Shown piece by piece: positions 12,230-45,089 of a stretch of DNA of 64,000 nt; the stretch's first letter is position 1; every line of letters begins with the position of its first letter. A program made the position numbers and the translations under genes. This DNA is from Octopus vulgaris (lineage: Eukaryota). A model generated the notes under the pieces. It did no database searches. It was given only the letters and a program-made list of their open reading frames with translations, and was not told where the DNA came from. The stretch spans positions 55,800,001-55,864,000 of the forward strand of contig OX597827.1 in NCBI GenBank assembly GCA_951406725.2, given 5' to 3'.

Positions 12230-12305
12230 TGGCTTCCCTGGCAGGGAATTGAACCCCAGTTTCCTGCATGACAAGCAGGGATACTTAGCACTTACTATAC
12301 TACTA
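12230..12305 (-). pseudogene. tRNA-Asp(GTC) pseudogene / retrocopy with encoded CCA
   Basis: Minus strand reads tagtatagtaagtgctaagtatccctgcttGTCatgcaggaaactggggttcaattccctgccagggaagCCA. This matches eukaryotic tRNA-Asp with CpG-decay substitutions and a degraded 5' acceptor strand. Confidence 0.8.
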
Positions 12306-12430
12306 TAAATTTTTAGCAACACTGTATGGACAGATAGATGTGAACACTTTGTTTTCATATACGATATCTTTGTGAATGGAAAAAGGGCATCTGCCAAACT
12401 GGTATCAACCCTGTGTTGAGGATTCATAAA

Positions 12431-27651: not shown

Positions 27652-27874
27652 CTAGAAACCCAACAAGATAAAAAAATAATATCTATCAAAAAATCAGATG
27701 AAGCCATGATTTGTGCAGGCGCACACACACACACACGTACATATAAGGAAATGCTTATAAAAATACACACACATTTACATGTGTATATCTGTAAATGTGT
27801 GTGTGTGGATAGATAGATAGATAGATAGATGGATACATACATTTACAGATAAATGTATCACTCTTTCTTTCATA

Positions 27875-27915
27875 AATATATATATATATATATATAAATA
27901 CATATACATAGATGT

Positions 27916-27954
<39 letters not shown>

Positions 27955-27992
27955 AATATACATATATATATATAATATGTATACATAAATGT

Positions 27993-28027
<35 letters not shown>

Positions 28028-28036
28028 CATAAATGT

Positions 28037-28073
<37 letters not shown>

Positions 28074-28445
28074 AATGTATACATATATACATATATATAT
28101 ACATAAATGTATACATATATACATATATATAAATGTATACATATATACATAAATATATACATAAATGTATACATATATACATATATATATATATATAAAT
28201 AAATGTATACATATATATATACATAAATGTATACATATATACATATATATATATATACACATAAATATATATACATAAATGTATACATATATATATAAAT
28301 ATATATACATATATGTACATATATGCACACACACACAAATACGTACATATACACACATAGAATATACAGTTAAGTACATATACGCACATACTTATATATG
28401 TATGTATATATATACACACACACACACACATATATATATATACAC
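27875..28445. repeat. Compound (TA)n / tatacataaatg minisatellite
   Basis: Unit atacataaatgtatacatat repeated with variable (TA)n spacers, almost stop-free on the minus strand. This is the source of the long spurious YI-rich ORFs. Confidence 0.9.
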
Positions 28446-35043: not shown

Positions 35044-36106
35044 CCAAGTTTGCATGATTGTGTATAGAAGAATATATTAATCAATGAAATTCCAACTAAG
35101 TCTGGTTTCCATGTTTTATTATTTTCAATTTGTGAAAACAGCAAATAATAAACATGAAAACCATACTTAGTTGGAATTTCATTGACTAATTATATATATA
35201 TATAAATATATATATATACACACCACACACACATACATATATCATCATCAGTTAACATCTGTTTACCATGCTGGTATGGGTTGGATGGTTTGTCAGGAGC
35301 TGGCAAGGCTGGGGGTTGCATCAGGTTCCATTGTCTGTCATGGCATGGTTTTTACAGCAACACCAACCACTTTGCAGAATGTACTGAGTGGTTTTTATGT
35401 GGCACCAGCACCAACAGGGTTGCCAAGTACCTTGGAAGATAAAAGCCCCTCAACTGGGGGTGGGAGTGAGTAGCATTGATGGGCTATGGTTTGTGCCAGT
35501 TGAGGGATTAAAGGTATAGAGGGGCAGGTATAGGTGTCTTGCTGTAGAGTAGATACATGGATACTCCAGTTGGAAAAGAAAAGAAAGTGAGTTAGAGCGT
35601 AATATAAAGACAGTGATAGTGACAGAGATTACAACCAAAATTTATCAGGACATGTCCTTGAGGGACAATAAGGGTGGTGAGAATAGGTGAGGTGATATAG
35701 AGGGTTGGGTTGGGTGAGTGAGCAGGGGAGATGACTGTAGTAAATGATGGAGAGAAACATAGGAGAGCCTCCTGGGTGGTAGATATGAGGGCTTTGAAGA
35801 TGTAAACCCCTCAACTGTGGTGGTGGGGGCGAGTAGTATTGAATGAGTGTGGCCTTGTGCTAGTTGAAAAAAATAAGGTATAGGTGTCTTGCTGTAGAGC
35901 AGACACATGGATACCTCAGTTGGATAAAAATGGAGAGTGAGTTACAGAGTAAGATAAAATCTTTTACAGGGCACAGAAAATCTAAGGGGCCGCTGCAATA
36001 AGTGTGTGAATATGTTGAATAAAATCATAATAAACTGATTCTGTATTTTCTTTTACCCAAAGCCAGGCAACTTTTCAGCACCCCCTCATGTATATGTATA
36101 TATATG

Positions 36107-36144
<38 letters not shown>

Positions 36145-36152
<8 letters not shown>

Positions 36153-36613
36153 AATATAAGAGAGTTACCGTTAAGTGGTTAACTCTAGTGCTAAAAATAG
36201 CTCCTTATTCTGGTATAGCCACCGCGTATGCAATCGATTGGACCGCATGGGTACTTGATGCTCGTGAGGGTCCAATAAATTGTACCGAAGACAAATGCTG
36301 CTGATGACTTATATGTGAGTATAATTGCATATTATATTGATAAAGAAACAATTGTTCAGCATTAATCTATCTTTTCGTTGTGTTTCATTTTCCTTACGTT
36401 GAGGGTAATGTTATTTCTTTGTGGAAATAACTTCGGTGGCTATACCAGAATAAGGAGCTATTTTTAGCACTAGAGTTAACCACTTAACGGTAACTCTCTT
36501 ATATTTATGTATAAATTTGTATTGTTTCCCTGGTTTTTATGTGCTAAGCCACTTGGTGTTAAACTGATGGTATTATTAAATTAATATCTAATTTTTCACC
36601 CTTAATTATGAAT
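36145..36613 (+). mobile_element. Hammerhead-bearing element in (TA)n with perfect 80-bp inverted duplication
   Basis: 36145-36224 is the exact reverse complement of 36434-36513. TA tracts on both flanks. Confidence 0.75.
36294..36363 (+). ncRNA. Type I hammerhead ribozyme (minimal, dimer-type stem III)
   Basis: Stem I aatgctg/cagcatt (7 bp); CTGATGA 36301-07; stem II ttat...ataa; GAAA 36345-48; palindromic CAATTG; triplet GUU (after 36356). Confidence 0.85.
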
Positions 36614-36884
36614 TTATATATATATATATATAGGTGCAGGAGTGACTGTGTGATAAGTAGCTTGCTTACCAACCACATGGTTCCGGGTTCAGTCCCTCTG
36701 CGTGGCATCTTGGGCAAGTGACTTCAACTATAGCCTCGGGCTGACCAAAGCCTTGTGAGTGGATTTGGTCAACGGAAACTGAAAGAAGCCCATCGTGTAT
36801 ATACATATATCTTTTAAAAATGCATTTTCAAACCTTCTTTCGTATATAATTCCACTCATGCGGTACCCTACAACTCCACTTTGT

Positions 36885-43067: not shown

Positions 43068-43615
43068 GCAGAAACGTTAGCACGCCGCACGAAATGCGTA
43101 GACGTGTTTCGTCTGCCGTTACGTTCTGAGTTCAAATTCCGCCGAGGTCGACTTTTCCTTTCGGGGGTCGATAAATTAAGTACCAGTTACGCACTGGAGT
43201 CGATGTAATCGACTTAATTCTTTTATAAGGCGGCAAGCCGGCAGAAACGTTAGCGCGCTAGGCGAGATGCTTAGCGGTATTTCGTCTGTCGTTACGTTCT
43301 GAGTTCAAATTCCGCCGAGGTCGACTTTGTCTTTCATCCTTCCGGGATCGATAAATTAAGTACCAGTTACGCACTGGAGTCGATGTAATCGACTTAATCC
43401 GTTTGTTTGTCCTCTCTGTGTTTAGCCCCTTGTGGGTAGTAAAGAAATAGGTATTTCGTCTGCCGCTACGTTCTGAGTTCAAATTCCGCCGAGGTCAACT
43501 TTGCCTTTCATCCTTTCGGGGTCGATTAAATAAGTACCAGTTGCGTACTGGAGTAGTTCTAATCGACTGTCCCCCACCCTCTTCCAAAATTTCGGGCCTT
43601 GTGCCTAGAGTAAAA
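43068..43615 (+). mobile_element. Tandem trimer of SINE family 2 (Meta-domain-like core)
   Basis: Three consecutive units with ctgagttcaaattccgccgaggtcgac...tttcggggtcgataaattaagtaccag. Other copies at about 15800-16260(-), 17345-17530(+), 32700-33130(+), 55755-55938(-), 60370-60585(-), 63200-63415(-). Confidence 0.85.
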
Positions 43616-45081: not shown

Positions 45082-45089
45082 TATATATA

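Follow-up and report, generated by a model that had tools for sequence, protein, structure and literature searches.

A hammerhead-bearing repeat with a perfect inverted duplication in an octopus (TA)n tract: probable insertion by Penelope-like machinery

What process leaves a short, non-coding piece of DNA inside a TA microsatellite, with 80 of its own nucleotides repeated in the opposite orientation and a hammerhead ribozyme motif between the two arms? The question is posed by an element of Octopus vulgaris at positions 36145-36613 of the window (the whole stretch of DNA that was analysed, 64 kb in length). An earlier note on this DNA had described a perfect 80-bp inverted duplication set between TA repeats, and both parts of that description hold. 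Reverse-complemented, the left arm (36145-36224) agrees with 36434-36513 without a mismatch (80 of 80; blastn E 4e-37), the match stopping at both ends, and the element lies between a (TA)n microsatellite to the left of the target site (36091-36144; Tandem Repeats Finder array 36091-36158) and (TA)9 to the right (36615-36632). Because the ends of the element merge with (TA)n they are uncertain by a few bases, and no target-site duplication was readable within the flanking repeats. The minus-strand left arm is an inverted, 5′-truncated and tail-less copy of the element's 3′ part, with its 3′ end toward the left microsatellite. At the inversion junction (36224|36225) it meets a direct, plus-strand copy of about 389 nt (36225-36613), the 3′ end or pLTR-like part of a repeat family. 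This direct copy is multicopy throughout its length, and six-frame translation gave no open reading frame of note. It contains the segment duplicated in the inverted arm (36434-36513, plus strand), separated from that arm by a 209-nt spacer, and an optional 3′ "tail" of about 100 nt (36514-36613, plus strand). No relative of the element was found elsewhere in the window, nor any tandem copy; the window holds one unit and one hammerhead.

Other repeats surround the element. A SINE-like repeat (36632-36800, plus strand) follows it directly on the right, after (TA)9, and has nine other copies in the window at 71-92% identity; the copy at 45089 likewise has a TA run before it. About 120 nt from the head of another SINE-like copy (12118-11950) there is a weak Rfam tRNA match (12234-12309, minus strand; 30.4 bits against a gathering score of 29), which is probably a tRNA-derived repeat or pseudogene. 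Roughly 200 nt to the left of the element, 35431-35608 and 35792-35958 form a decayed direct duplication with a spacing of about 350-360 nt and 76-86% identity in three blocks, and the scanned frames over it had no Pfam match. Farther away are 2.6 tandem copies of a 174-nt unit (43107-43568), apparently a dispersed repeat, and a compound TA-rich microsatellite of about 570 nt (27872-28440).

The abundance of the element was assessed in public sequencing runs, 20 of the 24 listed containing part of it (10 studies, three organism labels). Four runs, X1, X12, X4, and X2, carrying organism labels A and B, were compared with it in detail at 80% likeness; run types were guessed, X12 and X4 being large and DNA-like, and the comparison left out the left flank and 36602-36645, a repeat region that includes the right junction. 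None of the runs listed with the element was marked as RNA, which, the types being guesses, has no bearing on expression. The earlier note had named a single-copy element without relatives as a case against its own reading. Instead, matching contigs numbered 484 in X12 and 629 in X4, with 77 and 127 of these at least 99% alike. Depth summed over contigs (not to be read as copy number) was 89-fold (X12) and 186-fold (X4) higher over 36549-36582 than over 36226-36293, and about 10-fold higher at the hammerhead than over 36226-36293. In X4, depth was 52 in the bin 36209-36225 and 1190 in the next bin. This gradient shows strong 5′ truncation across copies. It also overturns the description of the tail as unique, given that the tail is the family's commonest part, as expected of a retroelement that is copied from its 3′ end and shortened at its 5′ end. 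In several contigs from different runs the match starts at 36534 or 36454, which suggests more distant subfamilies with only the last 80-160 nt in common. No loose end at 36225 was present among the loose ends listed. Exact motif scans of metagenome contigs and viral contigs gave no match.

Other copies differ from this one in where the inversion falls. In X1 contig 3, an inverted piece (36601-36533) is joined to a direct piece starting at 36429; the contig is identical to this copy over 122 letters, and X4 has the same joint. In X1 contig 1, TA is followed by an inverted piece with its end at the 36513 boundary, then by three additional letters and a direct piece starting at 36534, while a loose end in X4 runs from about 36513 into (TA)n. 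Insertion into (TA)n is thus seen on both sides of this locus, in X1 contig 1, and at the X4 loose end. The boundary at 36513 is a recurrent internal 3′ end, and 7 of the 16 listed X12 and X4 pieces cross 36513|36514 from arm into tail. The family ends 3′ at either of two positions about 100 nt from each other, 36513 and about 36613, the outer one being taken from this locus alone. Since other copies have other inversion points and still others end at 36513 on (TA)n, the inverted arm is no constant component of the family but is made anew in each insertion.

Taken together, the 3′-biased abundance, the copy-specific inversion points, and the recurrent internal 3′ end support a Penelope-type insertion, and the interpretation offered in the earlier note is borne out in outline. 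We consider it very likely that this is a stump inserted by the machinery of an endonuclease-bearing Penelope-like element (PLE). By analogy with described systems (Arkhipova et al., 2013, PMC3846280; Craig et al., 2021, PMC8557442; Frangieh et al., 2024, PMC11167929), a reverse transcriptase/GIY-YIG protein from a PLE at another locus would nick the (TA)n tract and prime on the family RNA, and reverse transcription would start at either of two sites in the 3′ part of that RNA (about 36613 and about 36513). Each end of the target would receive a 5′-truncated cDNA. The longer, of about 389 nt, would include the tail and the shorter, of 80 nt, would lack it, and their head-to-head joining would give a perfect inverted repeat. 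The hammerhead would travel as cargo of the family. Which PLE clade supplied the protein is a more tentative matter: the Hydra clade is perhaps a little short of an even bet, with Neptune or another clade otherwise. Neither this copy nor the 150 window frames scanned contained an open reading frame with reverse transcriptase and GIY-YIG domains, and thus no PLE protein could be tied to the family from within the window. The scan took in the longest 150 among the window's 242 low-repeat frames, and none matched Pfam. The Naiad clade was tried and rejected, since the element has a full hammerhead with stem I and no by-eye likeness to three octopus Naiad 3′ ends.

Perfect arms beside a microsatellite are also what an assembly error or a library fold-back would leave, and none of the listed pieces spans the whole stretch, nor did a DNA-like run show a crossing of the inversion junction. 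That the inverted arm is such an artefact is nevertheless close to negligible in our estimate. Contig 2 of run X1 spans the junction, with 25 matching letters and 22 letters differing solely by A-to-G changes on the arm side, and 214 letters on the other. It carries all five letters that set this copy apart from the family majority (see below), X1 being possibly from the same animal as the window, and the same kind of joint occurs at other loci. Those other loci also weigh against a MITE or fold-back DNA transposon (36145-36513) with 78-80-bp terminal inverted repeats and a TA duplication, lying beside an unrelated 100-nt repeat. The inverted repeats do look terminal and are perfect, the 209-nt spacer fits, and TA is present at both outer ends. 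In other copies, though, the inversion points lie elsewhere and there are no fixed terminal inverted repeats, the right arm usually continues into the tail, X4 rarely shows the arm-loop junction, and abundance is biased to the 3′ end and not symmetric; we regard this origin as highly improbable.

A closer relative of the preferred reading is that the element is one isolated unit (solo monomer) of a non-LTR retrozyme. Such a 390-nt hammerhead repeat would exist mainly as tandem arrays and would be cut to monomers, circularised, and re-inserted by a PLE acting in trans. The unit length falls within the 150-450 bp given for such elements, which also have type I hammerheads and low GC (PMC7229834), and animal retrozymes are reported to come from PLE ends and to include solo monomers (bioRxiv 10.64898/2026.07.22.740005). 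Tandem arrays would be covered evenly, whereas depth here differs by about 90-190-fold along the unit. A gradient this steep argues against tandem arrays as the main form, although the region of a head-to-tail joint (36602-36645) was outside the comparison. The window has no tandem copy, and the ends of copies do not lie at the predicted cut site. A retrozyme origin is accordingly quite unlikely, though clearly less so than either of the two explanations above.

An imperfect hairpin (36225-36287, plus strand; -27.6 kcal/mol, z -4.55, 0 of 200 shuffles as good) opens the direct copy, adjoining the inversion junction; the shorter hairpin pointed out earlier (attggacc...ggtccaat) proves to be part of it. 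The hammerhead follows at 36294-36363 (plus strand), and between it and the right arm are two more small hairpins (36364-36433, plus strand; z -2.74, 3 of 200 shuffles as good). A 7-bp stem I pairs 36294-36300 with 36357-36363 (pair probabilities 0.87-0.95 in the whole-element ensemble), CUGAUGA is at 36301-36307, GAAA at 36345-36348, and a GUU site at 36354-36356, so that cleavage is predicted at 36356|36357. The motif thus has the CUGANGA and GAAA boxes, the NUH site, and the stem I closing of a type I hammerhead, as recognised from sequence, descriptor scan, and fold. The earlier note had listed the 7-bp stem I and both boxes; the palindrome that it gave as six nucleotides is in fact eight (36348-36355, plus strand). 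The stem II region between the boxes is 37 nt long, and its canonical G10.1-C11.1 closing pair is absent, with a C.A mismatch in that place. This was the only match in the window with a 7-bp stem I. A descriptor of the same stringency had 0 matches in 60 simulated 64-kb windows, and one with a looser stem III had 5. Rfam models reported no hammerhead here at the gathering score or at E up to 10, and the hammerhead fold alone was no better than shuffles (z -0.77).

The palindrome forms stem III and can also pair between two copies, with an intermolecular duplex energy of -6.4 kcal/mol and an intramolecular pair probability of about 0.015. Dimer-dependent cleavage, as the earlier note predicted, fits this weak stem III and the literature. 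A lone copy likely cuts poorly and would need a second copy, through the palindrome, or a PLE protein. With a single hammerhead at the locus, this copy is therefore most likely not an efficient self-cutter, and it is unlikely to move without outside help. X1 contig 2 extends through the predicted cut site as uncut sequence.

Relatives that lacked the catalytic core had been named as a second case against the Penelope reading. The boxes are kept in the relatives seen: CUGAUGA is intact in 3 of the 3 covering loose ends among those listed, and no variants in 36345-36359 appear among the 40 of 49 rows listed. Variation is found around the boxes. In outer stem I, 36360 is changed from C to G in 44 and 66% of depth and 36361 from A to G in 42 and 59%, while the base preceding GAAA is changed from A to T in 29 and 50%. 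Stem II has an 8-nt insertion at 36310 in half of the X12 depth, and relatives have U or A at both stem II closing positions. In a single contig, X2 contig 15, two pairs of stem I have changed in both strands (G-C to U.G and U-A to C-G) without loss of pairing; its stem I ends at 5 bp and its stem II is closed by U.U. The odd features of this hammerhead fall inside the range of the PLE hammerheads listed in File S2 (PMC8557442) and are not necessarily lesions.

The absence of mismatches between the arms had been taken to indicate a recent insertion. This stands in part: 0 mismatches in 80 positions are compatible with a fairly young copy, but they only bound the divergence below 3.7% (95%). 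Given a distance of 0.09 for 25 million years (PMC13282606), the bound is roughly 5 million years at the implied rate, unless the arms have been homogenised. Moreover, the joint of a sister insertion is present under two organism labels, which argues against assuming a very recent, polymorphic insertion. In the loop, this copy differs from the family majority at five positions (36259, 36382, 36388, 36403, and 36428). Had all five differences arisen after insertion, the probability of identical arms would be 0.02, and most of the minority letters were therefore probably inherited from a minor source lineage. No contig in X12 or X4 has this copy's letter at 36259, which is no evidence of polymorphism because contigs lose rare variants.

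Over 36200-36438, X1 contig 2 (261 nt, depth 3) departs from the window at a single position. As it has all five minority letters and spans the inversion junction, it probably derives from this locus, and X1 may derive from the window's own source animal. Its 22 loose letters, compared with 36178-36199, show 7 of 9 A read as G and 0 of 13 other letters changed, in a cluster at 36181-36199 (plus strand) with a chance of about 1e-5 under random substitution with transition bias. At one of the seven changed positions, 36194 (partner 36464), a common DNA variant exists as well, and four further A in 36200-36224 are essentially unchanged. This cluster, in one contig of a run whose type is guessed, suggests ADAR hyper-editing (A to I) of plus-strand RNA folded on its arms. 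Plus-strand read-through RNA would fold into the 80-bp duplex, and we think it quite likely that this duplex is edited by ADAR.

Taken alone, the locus is of little importance, as it cleanly illustrates a mode of insertion that is already known. With two 3′ ends 100 nt apart and inversion at differing points, its family lends itself to tests of how inverted copies arise and of the role of the weak PLE hammerhead. Such insertions can also supply perfect double-stranded RNA to host editing enzymes. A bolder possibility, which we hold to be unlikely, is that this is an undescribed, still-mobile lineage of (TA)n-targeting PLEs with priming sites 100 nt apart and a long-stem hammerhead, spreading chiefly as short stumps that encode no protein and have their 5′ end fixed by the hairpin at 36225. 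The perfect RNA duplex of each insertion would then be edited by the strong ADAR activity of the host, and the edited RNA would be either lost as a template or copied back. If this were true, host editing would shape transposon sequence and would help explain the high variability of PLE ends.

Among known systems, the closest likeness is to endonuclease-bearing PLEs. An inverted 5′-truncated copy and an optional tail have been described (Arkhipova et al., 2013, PMC3846280; Craig et al., 2021, PMC8557442), and the tail has been equated with the distance between two internal initiation sites at an AT-rich target (Frangieh et al., 2024, PMC11167929). This element has the same head-to-head arrangement of an inverted, 5′-truncated copy and a direct copy, an optional tail at one end, strong 5′ truncation, a terminal-repeat hammerhead, a palindrome near the inversion junction, and an AT-rich target. 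It differs in that this copy is without an open reading frame and in its tail of about 100 nt, in contrast to the 30-40 nt of the tails described (PMC8557442, PMC11167929). A preference for (TA)n is shared with Naiads, a microsatellite bias is also reported in Neptune (PMC8557442), and 26 of the 27 Hydra families listed in File S2 of that work prefer (TA)n. Among 25 Hydra-clade families there, 10 have a GUU site and 14 have a U.U closing, many of the listed PLE hammerheads are also without the G10.1-C11.1 closing, and one Chara element has a C.A closing together with an 8-nt palindrome. The element resembles the Hydra clade in its (TA)n target, GUU site, 3′-proximal hammerhead, and unpaired stem II closing (U.U in one relative). 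On the other hand, its 37 nt between the boxes are more than in any of the 25 Hydra hammerheads of File S2, its hammerhead lies about 250-320 nt from the end, and the clade is defined by its protein, for which no counterpart was found among the window frames scanned. Compared by eye, the element is unlike the 3′ ends of Hydra-1_Obim, Naiad_Obim, Naiad_Ovul, and Naiad_Omin, and three short motifs from it are absent from the text of the PMC8557442 supplement, where line breaks can hide matches.

PLE hammerheads have been reported as weak in monomeric form, working as dimers or with protein (Cervera and de la Pena, 2014, PMC4209133; PMC11167929), and as dispensable for insertion in vitro. The present motif agrees with those of PMC4209133 in its type I fold, its palindromic positions 15.2-16.2 and loop 3, and the expectation of dimeric working and low activity. 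It departs from them in having no G10.1-C11.1 pair, which is called highly conserved in that work, a 7-bp stem I, and a stem II region of 37 nt (45 nt in relatives with the 8-nt insertion). Non-LTR retrozymes (PMC7229834; Li et al., 2026, preprint) are likewise short, non-coding, related to PLE ends, and equipped with a type I hammerhead, whereas the element here is not tandem, its depth is uneven along the unit, and its repetition is inverted, not direct. Both PLE repeats and self-folding repeats have already been reported to undergo editing, with a mean of 6.6 sites per hyper-edited read, massive editing of a lizard Penelope, and octopus named among the top editors (Porath et al., 2017, PMC5625713). 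The clustered A-to-G changes seen here (7 sites) are of the same kind, in a self-folding repeat; the difference is that the duplex is made by the insertion process inside one copy, with one contig in support. In the literature covered by our search, neither this family nor any cephalopod PLE hammerhead other than those of Craig et al. was found described; repeat databases were outside that search, as was an O. vulgaris library with 190 Penelope-like families (PMC13282606), and these may well contain it. The insertion pattern itself is already described, and this family differs from it in its longer tail and longer stem II.
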